Shown one piece after another: positions 7,506 through 59,700 of a DNA stretch of 64,000 bases. The stretch spans positions 1,645,639 through 1,709,638 of the forward strand of contig CBDFFW010000001.1 in the NCBI GenBank assembly GCA_965246945.1. The letters run 5' to 3'. Below the pieces are notes generated by a model. That model was not told the origin of the DNA and did not search any database. It saw only the letters and a program-made list of their open reading frames with translations. The stretch comes from Alphaproteobacteria bacterium (lineage in GTDB: Bacteria > Pseudomonadota > Alphaproteobacteria > UBA11073). The translations under genes and the position numbers were made by a program. How positions within the stretch are numbered: position 1 is the stretch's first letter; the number at the start of each line of letters is the position of its first letter.

Positions 7506-8265
7506 ACACATAACCCAGGCAGTGGTGCTGGCCGCCGGTAAAGGCGAACGCATGCGCCCGCTGACCGATCACACGCCCAAGCCGTTGTTGCCAGTGCTTG
7601 GTATTACACCGCTGGCCCGCTGCATCAATGCCTTGGTGCAGGCAGACATCACCACTATTATTGTAAATTATCATCATCTCGGCGCCCAAATAAGCAACGC
7701 CGTTGGGATGCTGGCCAAAGATTACCCGAATGTTACATTTCATCTGCAGGATGAAACAGCACAATTATTAGATACCGGTGGCACCATGCGGCGTGCGCTG
7801 CCGTTACTGGGCCAAGCACCTTTTTTCACGGTAAATGCAGCCGATTTTTGGGAAGATGGCGATAGTCCGGCCCTGCAGCGGATGCAAAATACCTGGGACG
7901 CTGAAAAAATGGATGCGTTGCTCCTGTTGCATGCCGCCGCCAATATTCGCGGCGATATGCAAAATGGTAATTTTGTATTTGATCCATTATCGTTATCCGA
8001 TCATGCAACACGGGCTGACGATGATAATTCAATCAGCGGACCCATCCAATTCAAATTGGCCAGCGTGCAACAGGCCTATATGTTCGGCAGCGTCACGCTT
8101 ATCAAACCGGAATTATTTGCGGCCTATCCGCTTAATCACATTTTCTCCCAGCGCCTGATATGGGAAGAATTAGCGGCACGGCAGCGCTTATATGGCCTGT
8201 TACACGATAATTTGTGGTATCATTTAACCAGCCCCGCCGATTATACCGCGCTTAATCCGGCTTGA
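7498..8265 (+). CDS. Sugar-phosphate nucleotidyltransferase, MurU-like NTP-transferase family
   Basis: N-terminal VVLAAGKGERMRPLTDHTPKPLLPV motif (GxGxR nucleotidyltransferase fold). ATG 7498 overlaps the tsaE stop (ATGGCTGA). In many alphaproteobacteria a tsaE-nucleotidyltransferase block includes MurU. Confidence 0.65.
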   Translation: MAEHITQAVVLAAGKGERMRPLTDHTPKPLLPVLGITPLARCINALVQADITTIIVNYHHLGAQISNAVGMLAKDYPNVTFHLQDETAQLLDTGGTMRRALPLLGQAPFFTVNAADFWEDGDSPALQRMQNTWDAEKMDALLLLHAAANIRGDMQNGNFVFDPLSLSDHATRADDDNSISGPIQFKLASVQQAYMFGSVTLIKPELFAAYPLNHIFSQRLIWEELAARQRLYGLLHDNLWYHLTSPADYTALNPA

Positions 8266-26143: not shown

Positions 26144-26710
26144 TTATAGTATTAAATCTTTTGCTTGATGTCTTTTCAAATATGTTCCCCGCATGCGCAT
26201 AATTGCTATTAGCGCTATATAACCTGCCAGATGGGCAACTATATCTTTAGGATCAAAAGAGCCATTATCTAGGTTATATTTCTGCGCGAATTCTAGAATG
26301 ATACAACCAATTAAATATGGGGATTTTTTAACTGGCATTTTAGGTTCTGTGTATTCTTCTATATCTGTTCGACAAAAAATTTTTTCATTAATTATCTTAG
26401 AAGTGTTTAATTTCGCACGCGACAGCTCCCAAACTTTTCCGATTGTAATAGCACTAAAGGGCAAAGCAATAATTGCCGAGAAATCAGCTAAATAATTGCC
26501 AGTTAAATTTACATCTAAGCCAATTCCTTCGTGCTGTAAAAAATTAAAGATAACCTCATTACAATGACGCGCTAACTGCTGTTCAAGTATATTGCCCATG
26601 CGGCAACCACATAACCGACCAAATATAGTTAACGCACAAAACGTGCTTGCTATGCTGGCCTCAAAGCCAATAACATCATTTGTAAACTTCAAAGAACTTT
26701 GTTTCTTCAC
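26144..26710 (-). CDS. Hypothetical protein (AT-rich gene)
   Basis: Uninterrupted 188-aa frame, no motif recognised, AT-richer than ligA next to it. Confidence 0.4.
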   Translation of the reverse strand: MKKQSSLKFTNDVIGFEASIASTFCALTIFGRLCGCRMGNILEQQLARHCNEVIFNFLQHEGIGLDVNLTGNYLADFSAIIALPFSAITIGKVWELSRAKLNTSKIINEKIFCRTDIEEYTEPKMPVKKSPYLIGCIILEFAQKYNLDNGSFDPKDIVAHLAGYIALIAIMRMRGTYLKRHQAKDLIL

Positions 26711-28963: not shown

Positions 28964-30364
28964 TCAAGGAATACTAAACCGTAAAGTAATAATCAGGCCT
29001 TGAGGTTGTTGAGTAGAAAGTTGCATTTCTGCGCCATGCAATTTGGCGATGGCGCTGACGAGGCTTAACCCTAACCCATTCCCTTGGCTGGTGCGGGCGG
29101 TATCAAGCCGCACGAATTGTTCAAGCACGCGGGCTTGATCGCTTTCGGCAATACCAGGACCGGTATCGGTGACGCGTAGGATCACATCCTCTGCTTCCTG
29201 GGCCACGGTGACCATAATTTCACCAGTTTCAGTATATTTAATCGCGTTATCAACTAGATTGAGCAGGGCTTGGAACAGCAATTGCCGGTGGCCTTTCACC
29301 ATCAAACCAGGGGTGGCCGCAAGCCATAATTTCAGGCCTTTGTCTTCAGCGATCGGTTCATACAGTTCGACCACATCTTGGGCCAGGAAACCAAGATCGA
29401 CCGGCCCCATAGAAGCTTTGGCCGTGCCGGCTTCGGCTTCGGCAATCGATAGCAATGCGGAGAAAGTTTTGAGTAGTTGATCGCATTCGGTAATTGCAAA
29501 ACCGATAGCCTCGCGGTGTTGTTTTTCCGGCTCAGGTGCCGCTTGCGCATTATGCAGGGTAATTTCTAATTTGGATTTAATCCGTGTCAGCGGACTACGC
29601 AAATCATGCGCCAGATTGGTAGTGACATTGCGAATGGTTTGGATCAGCCGTTCGATTTCCGCCAGCATTGCATTCAGCGTTAAGGCCAGCCGGTCAAATT
29701 CATCATCTGTGCCCAGCACCGGCATTCGCAGGCCGACCCCGCCGCGCATAATGCGTTCTGCCCCGCGCGTCATTAAATCCAAGCGGCCGAGCATTAATCG
29801 GCTCATCACATAACCGCCGCCGATACCAAGCGCCAGGGTAAGCGCCGCTGCCCAGACCACGGCATGCCAGATGGTGAGTTTAAAATGTTCCTGATCGCGC
29901 AAATCCCGCCCGACCATTAGCACGCTGCCATCGGGCAGGCTAAGCGCCAGCGCCCGCACGGCTTGCTGTCCCAACCCACCGCCTGCCTCACGCTTGGGCA
30001 AGTTAAAGCTTAGCCACCGGCCGTCTAAGGTAGCAGCCAAAGGCCATTCCGGCACATTGCCGACCAAAGGGCGAAACGCTTGATCGGCCAATAAATAAAC
30101 CGCGCTGTTGACGCGGTTAACGTTTAAACGATCGGCCAAAAGCTCTTTTAATTGCTTTACGCCGCCGTCTTTGAATTGATCGGCAAGTTCACTAACCTCA
30201 ACCTCAATCGCGTTATCATTTAATTCGCGTAAATTTTGGGCGGTGGTCCAATAGACGAAAAATAGCATCGCCAGCATGGAAAGACCGAACAAGCTGATAT
30301 ACAGCAGCAGCAACCGAAAGGTTGAAGTGCGGTAAAAAATATTATGCCGTGGGTGCGGGACCAC
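28964..30364 (-). CDS. Sensor histidine kinase (two TM helices, HAMP, HisKA, HATPase_c); GTG start
   Basis: H-box LAHDLRSPLT. N, G1 and G2 boxes (LLNLVDNAIKY, DTGPGI, GLGLSL). Downstream of an OmpR-type regulator. Confidence 0.85.
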   Translation of the reverse strand: MVPHPRHNIFYRTSTFRLLLLYISLFGLSMLAMLFFVYWTTAQNLRELNDNAIEVEVSELADQFKDGGVKQLKELLADRLNVNRVNSAVYLLADQAFRPLVGNVPEWPLAATLDGRWLSFNLPKREAGGGLGQQAVRALALSLPDGSVLMVGRDLRDQEHFKLTIWHAVVWAAALTLALGIGGGYVMSRLMLGRLDLMTRGAERIMRGGVGLRMPVLGTDDEFDRLALTLNAMLAEIERLIQTIRNVTTNLAHDLRSPLTRIKSKLEITLHNAQAAPEPEKQHREAIGFAITECDQLLKTFSALLSIAEAEAGTAKASMGPVDLGFLAQDVVELYEPIAEDKGLKLWLAATPGLMVKGHRQLLFQALLNLVDNAIKYTETGEIMVTVAQEAEDVILRVTDTGPGIAESDQARVLEQFVRLDTARTSQGNGLGLSLVSAIAKLHGAEMQLSTQQPQGLIITLRFSIP

Positions 30365-30414
30365 AGAGGGTTTATGGCATGAAAGTCATAAACTGGGGAA
30401 AGAATTTTTTTGCC

Positions 30415-30546
30415 GTCATCCCGACGAAAGTCGGAATATAGTGAATTAAAAGCATGATGTATGAGCATTATCCTATAGTAAAATTATTTTTGAGCGCCCT
30501 TGGCGCACATTATTGCCACTGGATCCCGACTTTCGTCGGGAAGACG
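30415..30546. repeat. Hairpin-bounded non-coding element (family B, GTCATCCCG-type) in the regulator-kinase spacer
   Basis: Left end GTCATCCCGACGAAAGTCGGAAT. Right end GGATCCCGACTTTCGTCGGGAAGACG, which is the inverted complement. The ~85-bp AT-rich core contains a GCGCCCTTGGCGC hairpin. Confidence 0.55.
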
Positions 30547-30550
30547 CTAG

Positions 30551-31243
30551 CTAAACCAGCCCATCCGCTTTCACCGTATACCCGGCGCCGCGGATAGTGT
30601 GGAGTAAAGCGGGGGTGAAACCTTTATCCAGTTTTTGGCGCAGGCGCGAGATATGCACATCGATCACATTGGTTTGCGGATCAAAATGAATATCCCACAC
30701 ATTTTCCAGCAGCATCATGCGCGTGACCACCTGCCCGGCATGGCGGACTAAATATTCTAACAGACGGAATTCGCGCGGCTGCAAATCCAGTTCCTTGCCG
30801 CTGCGTTTGACCACGCGGGCGATTAAATCCATTTCCAGATCAGCCAAGCGCAGGGTGGTGGCCGGCGCATCATTGCTGCGGCGGCGGATCAGCGCTTCAA
30901 GCCGCGCCAATAATTCGGTAAAAGCAAAGGGTTTGGGCAGATAATCATCCCCGCCCGCTTTCAGGCCCATCACGCGGTCATCCACCTGATCCAAAGCACT
31001 TAGAATTAAAACAGGAGTAGCGTGGCCGGTTTTGCGCAATTCGGCAATGATACTTAGCCCATCTAAATTCGGCAGCATGCGATCGATAATCATCGCCTGG
31101 TATTTGCCTTCTTTGGCGCGCTGCAGGCCGGCTTTGCCATCGGCCACATGTTCAACGCGGTAGCCACTATCATGCAGGCCCTTTACCAGATTTTTGGCAA
31201 CCTCTTGATCGTCTTCAATCAAAAGTAAGTTGGGTGCACGCAT
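30551..31243 (-). CDS. OmpR/PhoB-family response regulator
   Basis: Receiver domain (DD, D in MIIDRMLP, K in LPKPF) plus a winged-helix trans-regulator C-terminus. Confidence 0.9.
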   Translation of the reverse strand: MRAPNLLLIEDDQEVAKNLVKGLHDSGYRVEHVADGKAGLQRAKEGKYQAMIIDRMLPNLDGLSIIAELRKTGHATPVLILSALDQVDDRVMGLKAGGDDYLPKPFAFTELLARLEALIRRRSNDAPATTLRLADLEMDLIARVVKRSGKELDLQPREFRLLEYLVRHAGQVVTRMMLLENVWDIHFDPQTNVIDVHISRLRQKLDKGFTPALLHTIRGAGYTVKADGLV

Positions 31244-31342
31244 AAAATGATCTTAGCGCAAACCCGTCCAAAACAGAAATGACATTTCCGTTAGGATAAA
31301 GTTAGCCTTTTTCCCACAGGGGAGAGAATTGTCCAGTTTAAC

Positions 31343-33904
31343 TTATATTTCCTGATTTTTGACATTGGGCATAATCACACGGTGCGCGGGCAGCCAGAAC
31401 ATGGCGTCAGTCCCCTTGCCAAATACTGATTCCAGTTTGAATTCACCGCCATGCAGTTCGATGAGTGATTTGACCAGGGTTAGGCCCAAACCGGTACCGG
31501 CATAACGACGGGACATGGCACTGCCCACCTGGACAAATGGCACCATTACCTTGGTAATATCATCCGGTTTAATCCCGATACCGGTATCGCTGACGATGAT
31601 TTGCAGGCGGCCATCGGCACCTAAATAAGCATTGATCCGCACCGTACCGCCTTCAGGTGTAAATTTTACGGCATTGGACAACAAGTTTAAAATCGACTGC
31701 TTAATTGCCAATTCCTCGCCCATAATATTGGGCAGATTGGGCGGCATATCGTTGATCAGGGTAAGCTTACCACTATCGGCGCGTGGTTTGACCAACCGCA
31801 AGGCCGCATTGGCCACGCGCGAGAGATCGAAAATGCTTTCATTCAATTCTTTTTTACCGGATTCAATTTTGGACACATCCAAAATGTCGTTAATCAATTC
31901 CAGCAAATGATTACCGGATTCATGAATATCTTTCGAATATTCGACATATTCAGACCGGCCAACGGGACCGAACATTTCGTCCTTAATAATTTCCGAAAAC
32001 CCAATCACCGCATTAAGCGGGGTGCGCAATTCATGGCTCATATTGGCCAAGAATTCGGATTTGGCGCGGTTGGCCAGATCGGCATTTTCCTTGGCAATCC
32101 GCAGGGCGTTTTCGGCTTCTTTCCGGCGGGTAATATCCTCAATAATGCCTTCGAAATGCTGTACTTCGTTATCTTCATTACGCGCCAAGCGGCCACTAAA
32201 ACTGACCCAAATCACCCCGCTGCCATGCCGGCGCATTTGCAATTCAAAACTGTTGATACTGCCCGATAGCTGCAGCCCATCAATCAACTGTTCCCATTGG
32301 CCGGACTCAATGCATAAATCGCGGCCGATATGACTGACTTCGGTAATCACCGTATTGGGGCTGTCATAGCCTAAAATATGTGCCACCGTTGGATTGGCAC
32401 GCAGGAACCGCCCATCGAGTGTTGACCAAAATAAACCGGCAACTGAATCTTCGACCATCGCGCGGTAACGCTGTTCTTTTTCACGCAATTCGGCTTCTTG
32501 GCGTTTGGCATCGGTAATATCCCGCAAGGTGCCAACAATGCGGACAGAGGCAATACCCGAATGGCGCATGCTGCGCAACGCAACCTCGGCCAGTTTAAAA
32601 CCGCCGCTTTTGCATAATAATTTTATTTCATACCGCTTGTTATTTTCTTCGCCGCTGAGCGCCAAATTAAACTGGTTTTGCAGCATTTGCCGGTCGGCTT
32701 CATGAATAAAATCGAACAGAGTTTTGGTGAGGGTATCCCGCCGGTCGAACCCTGTGAGATAAGTCCACGCATCGTTGATAAAGGTGATGGAGCCCAAGGC
32801 ATTAGTTTGAAACACCGCGTCATTAATATGATCAACCACTTCACGGAATTCGCGTTCGCGGTTACGCAAGGTTTCGGAAATTTGATCCCGTTCCACCACC
32901 CGCTCTTTTAACTGGCGGTTGGTGCGTTGCAGCGATTCCGCCAGGCTGGCAACTTCCAAAGCGCGCCGGTGGTTATCAAACAGAAAATTCGTTAATGAAA
33001 TGGTGAAGCCCAGACCTGCCAGAAAAATTACCAGCGGCATAAAAAATAAGGTGGCGTTAACCCCATAATTATAAACTAAAAATGAAATTTCATATAAATT
33101 TTCACCCACCAAAAAATTGCTGCGCAAGGTTTTCTTCGGCAACCAACCCGCAAATTTCTGCCCGTTAGCAAATTCAATTTGATTGGGAATACCACTAAGT
33201 ACCAATGGCTTCACTTCCGCTGAAATGATACTTGGCTGATCAATCCGGATATCTAAGCGGTTAACATTAGCGACCAACATCATGAATTGCGCTTCCGCGC
33301 CGCCTTCACCCAATCGCGCGATATAGACCAGATTACCATCATTCTGTTCATGCCATAATTGCGGTGACGTTTTTAATAACAGCATTCCACGCCCGCGTTC
33401 AGCCAAGGCCAAGGCGGCATGGATGGGTGTATCCGAATTTAAAATGTAATTATAGTTAATGTTATTTTTAGGCAAAGATGTATGCACATATTCAACATTA
33501 TAAGTGCCATCCATACTGCGTTTGATTTGCAGGATACTTTGGAAAATAGGATCTTTTCTGATGATATTATCCAGAACCGGTTGAATGATACTGGAGTCGC
33601 CTTCCTGGAAATTGCTCGGGCCGACCAAAACATTAAACATTTCGATTGTTTGATCAATTAGCTGAAAACGTTGCTGGATTTTATTGGTAACGGCCGCAAC
33701 TTCGGCTTCCATATTATTGCGGTTGATTTCCAGAATGGCAAAAAGGGTATAGGCGGCAATTAGCAGCGCTAATAACACGCCAATCACCGGCACCAAATAA
33801 AACCACTGTTTCTGTTTTTGTAAGGCATTCGGCCGTCCAGCCGGTATCGGTACCGCTGATTTCAGCGGTCCTTCCACGGTTGCGACGCGAACGGTTGTGC
33901 TCAC
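31343..33904 (-). CDS. Sensor histidine kinase with periplasmic sensor domain, tandem PAS, HisKA and HATPase_c
   Basis: TM1, a ~230-aa periplasmic region, TM2, two PAS-like segments, H-box MSHELRTPLNAV, and ATPase boxes (NAVKFT, DTGIGI, GTGLGL). No receiver domain. Confidence 0.85.
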   Translation of the reverse strand: MSTTVRVATVEGPLKSAVPIPAGRPNALQKQKQWFYLVPVIGVLLALLIAAYTLFAILEINRNNMEAEVAAVTNKIQQRFQLIDQTIEMFNVLVGPSNFQEGDSSIIQPVLDNIIRKDPIFQSILQIKRSMDGTYNVEYVHTSLPKNNINYNYILNSDTPIHAALALAERGRGMLLLKTSPQLWHEQNDGNLVYIARLGEGGAEAQFMMLVANVNRLDIRIDQPSIISAEVKPLVLSGIPNQIEFANGQKFAGWLPKKTLRSNFLVGENLYEISFLVYNYGVNATLFFMPLVIFLAGLGFTISLTNFLFDNHRRALEVASLAESLQRTNRQLKERVVERDQISETLRNREREFREVVDHINDAVFQTNALGSITFINDAWTYLTGFDRRDTLTKTLFDFIHEADRQMLQNQFNLALSGEENNKRYEIKLLCKSGGFKLAEVALRSMRHSGIASVRIVGTLRDITDAKRQEAELREKEQRYRAMVEDSVAGLFWSTLDGRFLRANPTVAHILGYDSPNTVITEVSHIGRDLCIESGQWEQLIDGLQLSGSINSFELQMRRHGSGVIWVSFSGRLARNEDNEVQHFEGIIEDITRRKEAENALRIAKENADLANRAKSEFLANMSHELRTPLNAVIGFSEIIKDEMFGPVGRSEYVEYSKDIHESGNHLLELINDILDVSKIESGKKELNESIFDLSRVANAALRLVKPRADSGKLTLINDMPPNLPNIMGEELAIKQSILNLLSNAVKFTPEGGTVRINAYLGADGRLQIIVSDTGIGIKPDDITKVMVPFVQVGSAMSRRYAGTGLGLTLVKSLIELHGGEFKLESVFGKGTDAMFWLPAHRVIMPNVKNQEI

Positions 33905-51286: not shown

Positions 51287-51289
51287 ACC

Positions 51290-51327
51290 GTCATCCCGGC
51301 GCAGACGCTGCGCGCCGCGCCGGGATC
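51290..51327. repeat. GC-rich hairpin with GTCATCCCG/CGGGATCC ends in the sucC-sucD spacer
   Basis: GTCATCCCGGCGCAGACGCTGCGCGCCGCGCCGGGATCC forms nested palindromes. The ends match the family-B hairpins at 30415, 30521, 59260 and 59671. Confidence 0.45.
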
Positions 51328-51373
51328 CAATAATCAATAAGCGCGCCACAGGCGCACAATGAAGGATTAAAAA

Positions 51374-52264
51374 ATGGCTGTTCTCGTTAACGCACAAACC
51401 AAAGTGATCTGTCAGGGCTTTACTGGCGCGCAGGGCACGTTTCACTCTGAGCAGGCGATTGCTTACGGTACCAAAATGGTCGGCGGCGTGACCCCGGGCA
51501 AAGGCGGCACGCAGCATATCGGCCTGCCGGTGTTTGATACTGTCGCGGAAGCCCGCGCGCGCACCCAATGCGATGCGAGTGTGATCTACGTCCCTGCCCC
51601 GTTTGCGGCGGATGCGATTTTGGAAGCAATTGATGCTGAAGTGCCATTGGTCGTTTGCATCACTGAAGGCATTCCCGTGTTAGACATGGTAAAAGTAAAG
51701 AAAGCTTTGGCAGGCAGCAAGACCCGTTTAATTGGTCCGAATTGCCCAGGTGTGATTACCCCTGGCGAATGTAAAATCGGGATTATGCCTGGCCATATCC
51801 ATATGCGCGGTAAAATTGGCATCGTTTCGCGCTCTGGCACCCTCACTTACGAAGCAGTGGCGCAAACCACTGCCGCTGGTCTTGGCCAAACCACTTGTAT
51901 CGGTATCGGCGGTGATCCAGTGAACGGCACCAACTTCGTGGATGCGTTGGAAATGTTTTTGGCGGATGAAGAGACCCAAGGTATCATCATGATCGGTGAA
52001 ATTGGCGGTTCGGCAGAAGAAGATGGCGCGGCGTTTTACAAAGCCAGCAAAATCAAAAAACCCATTGTTGGTTTCATCGCCGGGGTTACTGCCCCACCGG
52101 GCCGCCGCATGGGCCATGCGGGCGCGATCATCGCGGGCGGTAAAGGCGGCGCGGGCGACAAAATGGATGCGATGCGCGCGGCCGGTTTTGCCGTTTCGCC
52201 ATCACCTGCTGCACTTGGCCAAACGATGTTAGATTTGATGCAAGGCAAAAAAATCGCTGCATAA
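51374..52264 (+). CDS. sucD: Succinyl-CoA ligase alpha subunit
   Basis: Phospho-His loop region SRSGTLTYE and CoA-binding Rossmann N-terminus. Confidence 0.95.
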
Positions 52265-56124: not shown

Positions 56125-57060
56125 TTGCGGATGGATAAGGCAGATTTATTATTAACCGATACGACATTGTACCAAAATACCAATACTGCTGTTCGCCACA
56201 TGCTGGCCAAATTATTGGCAGCTGGTTACGCCGCCGCTGCTAGTGATGAAATTGTGATTAAAGATTATGGCTGCGGCCAAGGTAATTTAGGAAAATTAAT
56301 TGTTGATACATTAAAAGATGCGGGTAAACCCATTCGGTACATGGCTTATGATGCAGAATTGATTTTGTTACATAATACCGCCGAATTATGGACAGGACAT
56401 TCTGATATTCATACTTCATTTGAAAAGGCTGATATTTTTGACCGGTATTTTTTGATGGGACAAGCCAGCGACCCAGCCGATATTATTATTGCTTCGCACG
56501 TATTATATAATTCTGGTAAAGAATTTGCGGCTTTTATCAAAGCTTGTTTGAACGGTTTAAAGCCAAATGGCTTAACGCTATTTATTAATGATAATGTCGA
56601 AGCAGAAATTCAGATGCTTAGAAGAAAATATGGAATAGGTGGCATTCCATCGGCAATCACGCCGTTGGAAAACGTATTTTACCAAAATGGCATTCAATAT
56701 TTTTACGCCGATATTGCCAATGCCAATGAACCATTTGTGATTGATCAAAATAGGTATGTTGCGTGTGCTTCAACAACGCAAAAAGATGCTCCTGCGAATA
56801 CACAAACAGCAGCAATTGTGCAAGAAGTGGTGGATATGATCGCAGCCGGAGAAGTTTCATGCTTGGCTTTGCCTGAACTGATAGAGTTATTTTGTAAAAT
56901 ATATGGTGCCGCGCCGCAACCTGTGCAGCACCGTATTCATCTGGCATTACCGCCTTTGGGCCACCGGAATTTTGCCATGCTTAAAGTGCTGGAAACTGCT
57001 TTTAATTTTGATCACATTCCCGCTGAAAATTTAGGCGTAGCGCCGCCTACACCGCTTTAA
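56125..57060 (+). CDS. Class I SAM-dependent methyltransferase-like protein, substrate unknown
   Basis: Motif I VIKDYGCGQGNLG, an acidic residue after beta2 (YDAE), motif II-like IIIASHVLY. AT-richer than neighbours. Its 3' end overlaps cheR convergently. Confidence 0.5.
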   Translation: MRMDKADLLLTDTTLYQNTNTAVRHMLAKLLAAGYAAAASDEIVIKDYGCGQGNLGKLIVDTLKDAGKPIRYMAYDAELILLHNTAELWTGHSDIHTSFEKADIFDRYFLMGQASDPADIIIASHVLYNSGKEFAAFIKACLNGLKPNGLTLFINDNVEAEIQMLRRKYGIGGIPSAITPLENVFYQNGIQYFYADIANANEPFVIDQNRYVACASTTQKDAPANTQTAAIVQEVVDMIAAGEVSCLALPELIELFCKIYGAAPQPVQHRIHLALPPLGHRNFAMLKVLETAFNFDHIPAENLGVAPPTPL

Positions 57061-58392: not shown

Positions 58393-59259
58393 GTGGCAAC
58401 CAAGTGCAAAGCTACCCATATTGTGCTTATGGTGAATCGCACAGATGTGCTGGCATATTTGCAGCAATGGCATAATCAGCCCGATGAGGCATTGCCATTG
58501 GCAGAAATTGCGCTGCAGCTTGGTTTGCTGGATGTGCCGGATGGTAATCTCGCCCAATATAAAACGCAGTTGGTGCAGTTACAAAATGATACTCGGCAAG
58601 CGTTTAGCGATGATGGGCATATACCTGCACAAGCTGATGCCTTGCGCCAGGCCATTGTGGGCCGGCATCATTTTACCGGCGATAACGATACCTATGATGA
58701 TTTGCAAAATGCGAATTTGATGCGGGTTCTGGACCGGCGGCGCGGTCTGCCGATTACGCTCGGCATTGTGTATTTGGAAACCGCCCGCGCCTTGGGTTGG
58801 GAAGCAGATGGTTTAAACTTCCCGGGACATTTTCTGGTGCGGCTGACGGGTGAACGTGAACGCGTGATTATTGATCCCTTTCATGGCGGCCAGGAAATGG
58901 ATGCAGTGCGGCTGCGGCAAATGTTGAAAGCCGCCGCCGGTATGGCCGCCGAATTAACGCCGGATCATTATCTGCCCATGGGCAACCGGCAAGTGCTGCT
59001 GCGCCTGCAAAATAATATCAAATTGCGGCAGGTACAAAGTGGGCGGCTGCGGGAAGCTTTAAGCACTGTCGGCGTGATGCAGGCTCTGGCCCCCAATGAA
59101 GCAACCTTGTGGCGCGAAATGGGATTATTATATGCCGCGCTCGGTGAATTAAATGACGCGGTGAAAAATATTCAAACTTTTTATGAAAATTCCGTTGATG
59201 CCCGCAGCAAACAACAAGCACAAATGCTGCTGCAGGAATTGAAAGCCCGTTTAAATTAA
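58393..59259 (+). CDS. SirB1/UPF0162-family transglutaminase-like protein with C-terminal TPR-like helices
   Basis: LGIVYLETARALGWEADGLNFPGHFLVRL resembles the transglutaminase-like core of YchA/SirB1. C-terminal helical repeats. Confidence 0.6.
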   Translation: MATKCKATHIVLMVNRTDVLAYLQQWHNQPDEALPLAEIALQLGLLDVPDGNLAQYKTQLVQLQNDTRQAFSDDGHIPAQADALRQAIVGRHHFTGDNDTYDDLQNANLMRVLDRRRGLPITLGIVYLETARALGWEADGLNFPGHFLVRLTGERERVIIDPFHGGQEMDAVRLRQMLKAAAGMAAELTPDHYLPMGNRQVLLRLQNNIKLRQVQSGRLREALSTVGVMQALAPNEATLWREMGLLYAALGELNDAVKNIQTFYENSVDARSKQQAQMLLQELKARLN

Positions 59260-59700
59260 CTGTCATTCCCGCGCATGCGGGAATCTAGGATCAAAAATGC
59301 CGTTGTGCACAGCACAACGCCTAAATATAATCACTATATGCCTAAAGGCGGCTTTCTTTATATTTTAGCCAGTGGCCGCAACGGCACTTTATACATTGGC
59401 GTTATTAGCAACTTGCCACGCCGCTTGTATGAACATCAGAATGGTTTAATCAAAGGTTTTGCCTGGCGGCATGGCGTTGGGAAACTTGTTTATTACGAAG
59501 AATACAGCACCATTTGAAGCCACTGCCCGCGAAAAAGCGATGAAGAAATGGTATCGTTTATGGAAATTAAATACGATTGAAGCATTTAACCCAGAATGGC
59601 AGGATTTATCAGAATTACTGAATATGTAATTGTTTTTGCCATTGCGCTAACGCGTAATGTCTTCAGTATTCCTAGATTCCCGCATACGCGGGAATGACGA
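59260..59700. mobile_element. Small cassette: 30-bp hairpin terminal inverted repeats (family B) bracketing a frameshifted GIY-YIG gene
   Basis: Left end CTGTCATTCCCGCGCATGCGGGAATCTAGG. Right end CCTAGATTCCCGCATACGCGGGAATGACGA. The ends are inverted complements and each is itself a hairpin. The cassette abuts the fliL stop and the upstream gene's stop within 1-2 nt. Confidence 0.5.
59338..59629 (+). pseudogene. GIY-YIG nuclease family gene interrupted by a +1/-1 frameshift near 59515
   Basis: Frame A: MPKGGFLYILASGRNGTLYIGVISNLPRRLYEHQNG...YYEEYSTI then a stop. The next frame continues FEATAREKAMKKWYRLWKLNTIEAFNPEWQDLSELLNM, the conserved C-terminal half. The break is next to a short homopolymer (CCATTT). 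Confidence 0.6.

Follow-up and report, generated by a model that had tools for sequence, protein, structure and literature searches.

CGTC-tagged repetitive extragenic palindromes form a head-to-head dimer between a response-regulator gene and a sensor-kinase gene of an uncultured alphaproteobacterium

The DNA analyzed here is a 64-kb stretch of contig CBDFFW010000001.1 from an uncultured alphaproteobacterium, referred to as the window, and all coordinates are counted from its first nucleotide. Within the window, the gene of an OmpR-type response regulator is followed in the direction of transcription by the gene of a sensor kinase, whose GTG start codon is kept in two relatives. The spacer between them, 186 nt in length (30365-30550), is largely occupied by a non-coding element of 133 bp, which we call E1. 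E1 has 30-nt terminal inverted repeats, each arm of which is itself a hairpin, and it lies 4 nt from the regulator stop and 49 nt from the kinase start (Table 1). According to a repeat search, the left arm spans 30414-30443 and the right arm 30517-30546; 73 nt separate them, and their complementarity is 87%. The window contains just two copies of the 24-nt end motif CGTCWTCCCGACGAAAGTCGGRAT, inverted relative to each other, with 0 copies expected from 100 shuffles, and the GC content of the core is 34% as compared to 48.7% for the window. These data bear out a first-pass annotation of the same DNA, which had described an AT-rich core between two inverted hairpins in a spacer of this length; the sequences and coordinates that it quoted are all present in the window. 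Small open reading frames (ORFs) across the spacer (47 aa on the plus strand, 82 aa on the minus strand) were taken as spurious, and a search of 29500-31500 against Rfam at E ≤ 1 matched no family.

Table 1 Coordinates of the features of the regulator-kinase spacer, the GIY-YIG cassette, and the sucC-sucD spacer.
Feature	Coordinates	Strand	Description
Response regulator gene, OmpR-type	30551..31243	-	ORF; orthologue has Response_reg and Trans_reg_C domains; transcribed first
CTAG	30547..30550		4 nt between E1 and the regulator, TAG stop
E1	30414..30546	none	Head-to-head dimer of CGTC-1 repeats, CGTC tags outward, 79-85-nt AT-rich spacer
Right repeat unit of E1, regulator side	30520..30546	-	CGTC, TTCCCGAC, GAAA, GTCGGGAT, CCA
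Second small hairpin in the E1 spacer	30494..30506		GCGCC-CTT-GGCGC on plus, GCGCC-AAG-GGCGC on minus
Left repeat unit of E1, kinase side	30414..30440	+	CGTC, ATCCCGAC, GAAA, GTCGGAAT, ATA
Kinase-proximal part of the spacer	30365..30413	-	49 nt, outside E1; partly conserved in relative L120 (alignment)
Sensor kinase gene, HAMP/HisKA/HATPase	28964..30364	-	ORF, homologues, Pfam domains; downstream in transcription
sucC-sucD single CGTC repeat	51289..51329	+	2 nt past sucC stop; 14-nt loop expansion, longer stem
Motif-ssnA-motif cassette, 439 bp	59261..59699	+	Homology with the dimer family in both non-coding ends, 59261-59337 and 59630-59699
Left Ssn-related motif, TGTCATTCCCGCGCATGCGGGAATCTAG	59261..59288	+	Fits published search pattern
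ssnA-like single-domain GIY-YIG ORF	59338..59629	+	Frameshifted; Pfam PF01541
Right Ssn-related motif, CGTCATTCCCGCGTATGCGGGAATCTAG	59672..59699	-	Fits published search pattern

The hairpins of E1 belong to a known class of repetitive extragenic palindromes (REPs). The family CGTC-1, as defined by Di Nocera, De Gregorio and Rocco (2013, BMC Genomics 14:522; PMC3733652), has an unpaired CGTC tag with the variants TGTC and CCTC, an 8-bp stem that starts with AT, a 4-nt loop, and a tail that is mostly CCA. CGTC-1 repeats are found mostly in Alphaproteobacteria and mostly as head-to-head (HH) dimers, with the tags outside and with spacers of 20-100 bp that are often conserved and may contain extra small stem-loops. 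Usually, <20 bp separate them from the 3' end of the preceding ORF, and CGTC-1 is equivalent to dRS3 of Neisseria and RPE-6 of Rickettsia (PMC3733652). Both units of E1 have the CGTC tag, an AT-starting 8-bp stem, and a GAAA loop; the tags face outward, the spacer length falls in the published range, and the position directly past the regulator stop agrees with the published placement. E1 is an HH dimer of CGTC-1 REPs, of the same class as the Neisseria dRS3/NTS and Ssn-related motifs. Its units are slightly degenerate when compared to the published family. Each has one stem mismatch, which in the right unit breaks the first stem pair; the left unit has the tail ATA in place of the CCA of the right unit, with an A replacing the conserved C after the palindrome. 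As single-stranded DNA (ssDNA) hairpins, the left and right units have computed folding energies of -5.0 and -7.8 kcal/mol, respectively.

Two other sites in the window had been proposed to have the same end design, a GIY-YIG cassette at a distance of 29 kb from E1 and the spacer between sucC and sucD, and the comparison upheld this. All of these are CGTC-tagged REPs, with the tags TGTC and CGTC in the cassette and CGTC in the sucC-sucD unit. A strict scan of the window (tag CGTC, TGTC, or CCTC, stem of 8-9 bp, loop of 4-5 nt) returned five units against 1.3 expected. The setting differs from that of the better known members of the class: dRS3 and the intergenic mosaic elements form large clusters in Neisseria, whereas the dimers here are isolated, and RPE-6 repeats of Rickettsia lie inside genes, whereas none does so here. 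A loose REP scan also returned a TGTC-tagged 8-bp hairpin at 56371-56394 on the minus strand, CATAATTC-GGCG-GTATTATG, which is probably a chance match as it does not have the ATyCC stem.

The spacer was compared to that of the nearest sequenced relative, which was found as a mate of the kinase in a cluster of ≥90% identity and is represented by two loci on a 50.9-kb contig from ENA record ERZ26165376, L120 (corresponding to about 25-34 kb of the window) and L121 (about 44-66 kb). The relative has the same gene order (PAS-kinase, regulator, kinase, ligA), with flanking genes at ~90% nucleotide identity. Its regulator-kinase spacer consists of 81 nt and contains no REP; the kinase-proximal ~35 nt align with the window, and the 43 nt beside the regulator stop are unrelated to it. 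In a more distant relative, L119, with 59% kinase identity, the spacer is 108 nt and is likewise free of REPs. The presence of E1 in the window and its absence from the syntenic relative show that the regulator-kinase spacer acquired the element after this lineage had separated from its nearest sequenced relative. The first-pass annotation had proposed both the insertion and a comparison of orthologous spacers; the latter reveals presence/absence polymorphism and not a shared conserved spacer. One premise did not survive, namely that the two genes should form a tight operon, as the spacers without E1 still measure 81 and 108 nt.

The polymorphism runs in both directions. At the cassette site, the window has 439 bp, and in L121 the same pair of convergent genes is 27 nt apart. 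Past ligA, it is the relative that carries an HH dimer of 133 bp, E2 (L120 7524-7656), between the stops of ligA and a SET-domain gene, and the window has no dimer. The sucC-sucD unit, on the other hand, is vertically conserved: the relative has the canonical form CGTCATCCCGGCGAAAGCCGGGATCCAG in L121 and the window has the form with the loop expansion. The convergent intergenic region that separates ligA from the SET-domain gene is a hot spot of replacement, as the window has a hypothetical 188-aa ORF there (26144-26710, minus strand) and L120 has the dimer only (7520-7663).

To compare the cores of these elements, 28 nt of REP were removed from each end and global alignments were scored against 500 shuffles each. 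The core of E1 matched that of reverse-complemented E2 at 49 of 74 positions (z 6.1). A third dimer, E3, which is a 127-bp HH dimer on another contig of the relative, L122, matched E1 read on the minus strand at 46 of 67 positions (z 5.25). In turn, E2 matched the cassette with its ORF deleted at 58 of 74 positions (z 6.6). In none of the three comparisons was a shuffle as good as the real alignment. The homology between the cassette and E2 runs from 59262 to about 59338, approximately the ATG of the cassette ORF, and resumes 3 nt past its stop (59633-59699). E1, E2, E3, and the cassette therefore are a small family with a conserved spacer in this lineage. Because the cores are alike and are linked, through the sister dimers, to the non-coding sequence at either end of the cassette, the dimers look like ORF-less, non-autonomous versions of the cassette, as judged from these alignments. 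The same kinship makes the earlier description of a family "with or without cargo" a fair one, given that the core of E1 is homologous to E2 and E3, which match the cassette ends.

The members also share a layout in which an outer REP is followed by a small second hairpin, then by an A/T-rich stretch and a weak third hairpin, with the other REP closing the element. The second hairpin is at the same position in E1 (GCGCC-AAG-GGCGC), E2 (GTGC-GAA-GCAC), E3, the cassette (GTTGTGC-ACA-GCACAAC), and the sucC-sucD spacer (GCGCC-ACA-GGCGC), with stem sequences that differ; the stems were listed by eye, as MAFFT set them out of register. The A/T-rich stretch of the cassette reads TATAAT-CACTAT-ATG (59318-59340) and leads into the cassette ORF with no Shine-Dalgarno motif, which would fit a leaderless transcript that starts at the ATG. 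The matching stretch of E1, on the minus strand and directed towards the kinase, reads AATAAT-TTTACTATAGG, and no promoter is predicted there. In the sucC-sucD spacer (51289-51376, corresponding to L121 7164-7238), the family seems to be represented by a solitary left half: the REP and the adjoining 51330-51373 resemble that half, and the 45 nt past the REP lead into the ribosome-binding site and ATG of sucD. An nhmmer search aligned the sucC-sucD spacer of the relative (L121 7164-7230) to model positions 1-67 with an E value of 1e-5, and the window copy was not listed. The left ends all lie 1-10 nt past the stop of a co-oriented gene (the regulator, ligA, an ORF ending at 59259, sucC, and ssnA), in agreement with the published distribution (PMC3733652).

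The cassette connects the dimers to a nuclease gene. SsnA is a 94-aa GIY-YIG protein that binds the NTS, CGTCATTCCCGCGMAVGCGGGAATCYRG, a longer and oriented form of dRS3, as ssDNA only; its cut in the ssDNA falls a few nucleotides to the 5' side of the motif (Chenal et al. 2025, Nat Commun 16:2388; PMC11893778). In Neisseria meningitidis, NTS and SsnA restrict transforming ssDNA; across phyla, genes homologous to ssnA lie between Ssn-related motifs (SRMs), and the resemblance of the NTS-ssnA-NTS arrangement to an insertion sequence has already been remarked (PMC11893778). The ORF of the window cassette is an ssnA homologue on sequence grounds. When the frame is repaired, its 96-aa protein matches PF01541 over residues 5-78 with 48.9 bits against a cut-off of 22.6. 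Its identity is 81% to P0242, the 94-aa product of the closest intact ssnA, from a relative, and 59% to a GIY-YIG protein of Alysiella crassa (Neisseriaceae), and its homologues measure 93-103 aa. As in the published system, a single-domain GIY-YIG gene of ~94 aa is set between hairpins of the form CGTCAT, palindrome, C. Both flanking units match the published SRM pattern (HGTCWY N0-2 YYVSBRH N0-5 WNVSBRG N0-2 RNCYNB), for which 0.11 matches are expected per window, and both contain ATTCCC-N8-GGGAAT, which is exactly the dRS3 form. A PDB sequence search with the GIY-YIG protein returned only distant GIY-YIG proteins (SLX1, UPF0213) at E ~0.01, and an NCBIfam search gave a sub-threshold match only.

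The reading frame of the window gene is not intact. A +1 frameshift, due to one extra T in a TTT run (ACCATTTGAAGCC, 59513-59517), leads to a stop at 59515-59517, and the public record calls two half-ORFs (P0245 and P0349). The gene could be a pseudogene, or the frameshift could be a homopolymer assembly error, given that low-coverage contigs of the relative show similar breaks, such as a split ligA. On L122, the intact gene for P0242 is followed 10 nt past its stop by E3. The order along L122 1-700 is a REP, a second hairpin, and the ATG with six codons of ssnA; a 70-nt HH dimer; the intact ssnA; E3; and a partial REP. The 70-nt dimer thus lies directly 3' of a truncated 5' remnant of ssnA (its first six codons), a junction that is consistent with insertion into the remnant.

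The association between hairpin and nuclease gene is not limited to this lineage. In a scan with one genome per species, the 20-mer GTCWTCCCGACGAAAGTCGG was found at at least 117 loci from many phyla; those listed include Sphingomonas, Aestuariivirga, Rickettsiales, Devosia, Arenimonas, and Rhizobacter, as well as Bacteroidota, Planctomycetota, Dehalococcoidia, and several lineages of the candidate phyla radiation. The copies extend past the 20-mer as GAyCCA, very often followed by a short spacer and an inverted partner hairpin. Among the matches listed, the consensus form ATCCCGAC-GAAA-GTCGGGAT is present in 139 foreign units. In 94 of these, a partner in inverted orientation follows on the tail side at no more than 200 nt (median spacer 50 nt, range 18-143 nt), which is the arrangement of E1. 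A tblastn search with the frame-repaired GIY-YIG protein of the window found ssnA-like genes in six of the listed loci, and in five of these (L019, L049, L079, L100, and L047) the gene lies 44-345 bp from the hairpins. Hairpins of this kind therefore stand next to ssnA homologues, as SRMs do, in five listed loci and in E3.

Among the matches listed (L001-L117), an identical hairpin sequence of 20-24 nt, GTCATCCCGACGAAAGTCGGGAyCCA, is common to many phyla, which points either to horizontal spread or to very strong constraint from a cognate nuclease. Head-to-tail arrays replace the dimers in some of these genomes. In a Bacteroidales metagenome-assembled genome (MAG), four units follow each other with a 43-44-nt period (L104 1345-1500), and in an Arenimonas MAG, units with a 125-nt period lie directly 3' of an ssnA homologue (L079 6719-7115). 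A metagenome scan with a left-half pattern specific to the lineage of the window gave 0 matches, and the lineage seems to be absent from that collection.

A doublet of inverted REPs linked to a gene for an enzyme that acts on DNA brings to mind REPINs, in which a REP doublet is mobilized by a RAYT, a tyrosine transposase of the IS200/IS605 type. E1 shares with them a pair of inverted REP hairpins that fold up with the spacer into a single long hairpin, a non-autonomous form, and a tie to a single-copy gene between the same repeats; furthermore, IS200/IS605 enzymes likewise act on ssDNA hairpins (PMC11893778). RAYTs, however, go with GTAG-tagged REPs and are HUH tyrosine transposases, whereas the tag of E1 is CGTC and the gene that accompanies such repeats, in the window as in other genomes, is a GIY-YIG homologue of ssnA. 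No dedicated or associated transposase emerged from the survey of CGTC REPs (PMC3733652). Going by the tag and the flanked gene, we consider mobilization by a RAYT very unlikely.

The published role of SsnA suggests a different function, in which E1 would be a retained ssDNA-restriction site and SsnA would cut incoming ssDNA near the motifs, thereby modulating recombination around the flanked genes. This function has been shown for NTS and SsnA in N. meningitidis (PMC11893778), the motif class and the logic of its orientation are alike, and an ssnA homologue is present in the window. The window ssnA is frameshifted, though, natural competence is not known for this uncultured ~1.8-Mb alphaproteobacterium, and both units of E1 are substituted at positions important for SsnA binding or cutting. 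The two-component genes, moreover, show nothing special that would need such control. The chance that E1 is kept for this purpose appears minimal.

The spacer was also analyzed at the level of RNA. Folded as the transcribed minus strand, it has a free energy of -62.7 kcal/mol (z = -6.3), and none of 200 shuffles was as stable. REPs of E. coli are known to stabilize the upstream message and to reduce downstream expression. In a regulator-kinase co-transcript, E1 would form two tetraloop hairpins or one long stem, beginning 9 nt past the regulator stop. Such a stem-loop would be expected to protect the regulator mRNA, lower kinase read-through or translation, and skew the ratio towards the regulator. 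An effect of E1 on kinase expression is thus plausible, by analogy with the E. coli repeats and from the modeled fold.

The stable fold, the position directly past the regulator stop codon, and the precedent of the E. coli REPs could also mean that E1 is not mobile DNA at all but a structure evolved by the host in place, such as an attenuator, a terminator, or an mRNA-stabilizing hairpin, that tunes the regulator:kinase ratio. An origin in place is difficult to reconcile with the absence of E1 from both the syntenic close relative and the more distant one, with sister copies that have homologous cores at unrelated loci, and with a hairpin sequence that is common to at least 117 loci from many phyla. 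No terminator-like T-run was found in the spacer either. We therefore regard a host-evolved structure as improbable; a regulatory side-effect of a selfish insert is possible.

Our preferred explanation is that E1 is an HH dimer of CGTC-1 REPs that is related to the ssnA cassette, that was gained recently, that would spread through an Ssn-type nuclease or recombination, and that may skew the expression of the flanking genes. We assign this reading as a whole a probability of roughly 0.8. The absence from the close relative and the kinship with the cassette ends make E1 a real but largely ordinary selfish repeat. In the proposed mechanism, an Ssn nuclease would bind single-stranded hairpins of the E1 type and cut the strand just 5' of the tag; for an HH dimer, the two cuts would then fall on opposite strands, each just outside one end. 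Spread of the dimers may then depend on an Ssn-type nuclease acting at the terminal hairpins in ssDNA or, alternatively, on recombination between strains.

Several observations weigh against this explanation or parts of it. The genome of the window was covered over 64 kb and those of relatives over about 45 kb. Compared directly, E1 and the cassette ends give a z of 1.6, which is not significant, and the link runs via E2 and E3. The E1 units and the sucC-sucD unit fail the SRM pattern even with one substitution, and the E1 units do not match the strict NTS pattern; E1 misses the SRM pattern because its inner stem pairs differ (CCCGAC as compared to CCCGCG). Overall, the stems of E1 read CCCGAC/GTCGGG and those of the cassette TCCCGCG. 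Mutagenesis has revealed that stem sequence affects recognition by SsnA (PMC11893778); the window's own ssnA, which is also frameshifted, may not recognize E1. Binding by SsnA of N. meningitidis depends critically on the C that follows the palindrome (PMC11893778), and the left unit of E1 does not have this C. With this loss and a stem mismatch in each unit, E1 is no longer pristine. On the side of expression, scans of 30100-30800 for sigma-70 promoters and intrinsic terminators found none in the spacer, and the only terminator-like match lies inside the kinase start region, at chance level. The manner of insertion is also not clear-cut. E1 has no target-site duplication between its flanks TTTTTTTGC and CTAGCTAA, and the flanks TTTTTTTGC and CTAGCTAAA have no direct repeat in common; none was found at the cassette. 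At all three polymorphic sites, the relative has 27-43 nt of unrelated sequence or the site is occupied by the 188-aa ORF, and no clean empty site is seen; the sequence between the genes has been exchanged at each site and not just interrupted. Instead of transposition, the exchange of entire intergenic regions by homologous recombination, or divergence at a later time, may account for the pattern.

These same sites bear on the proposal that E1 is a miniature inverted-repeat transposable element (MITE). As a classical MITE, E1 would be a deletion derivative of an insertion sequence with a DDE transposase, moved by cut-and-paste via its terminal inverted repeats. Its small size, non-coding and AT-rich core, 30-nt terminal inverted repeats, and variable presence between relatives are what one would expect of such an element. 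The missing target-site duplication is not, and the ends are CGTC-tagged hairpins of a class found across phyla. The 64-kb window has no insertion sequence with the ends of E1, and the cassette, which alone among the related elements carries cargo, codes for a 96-aa GIY-YIG nuclease without demonstrated transposase activity. A classical MITE is very improbable in light of these findings. The label "MITE-like" given in the first-pass annotation holds insofar as E1 is small, non-coding, and bounded by terminal inverted repeats; it is only loosely apt, since E1 has no target-site duplication and no known transposase, and the element belongs to the published CGTC-1/SRM class.

A bolder interpretation makes the SRM-ssnA-SRM cassette an autonomous mobile element, at present or in the recent past, that moves by means of its GIY-YIG ssDNA nuclease, with the CGTC-REP HH dimers as its ORF-less, non-autonomous derivatives. 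Three lines of evidence suggest such a pair: the dimer spacers correspond to the non-coding sequence at the 5' and 3' ends of the cassette, the polymorphism is seen at ~90% identity, and the L122 junction places a dimer against an ssnA remnant. To our knowledge, GIY-YIG nucleases do not act as transposases. We offer this interpretation tentatively and consider it somewhat more likely to be wrong than right. If true, it would answer what mobilizes CGTC REPs.

The kind of element that E1 represents is already known; what is new is the kinship of its spacer with the cassette ends and the insertion polymorphism in genomes of ~90% identity. The CGTC-1 paper describes no dedicated mobilizing gene (PMC3733652), whereas in the E1 family the spacer and the non-coding ends of an ssnA cassette are homologous. 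The SsnA paper describes neither ORF-less dimers derived from cassettes nor polymorphism between close relatives (PMC11893778); in turn, only the cassette units of the window fall inside its degenerate SRM pattern. A literature search found no follow-up paper on dimer-cassette kinship or on insertion polymorphism. The shared spacers and the variable presence are modest comparative evidence for a transposon-like Ssn unit, and this lineage is suited to testing it. As a recently gained selfish repeat, E1 explains the oddly long regulator-kinase spacer and predicts a skew in regulator:kinase expression.

A last observation concerns the gene pair itself. On a Logan contig with an 84% kinase orthologue (L118, 1-1400), the ORF upstream of the kinase is a divergent one of 185 aa and not the regulator, so that either the regulator-kinase linkage is not universal in the group or the contig is chimeric.

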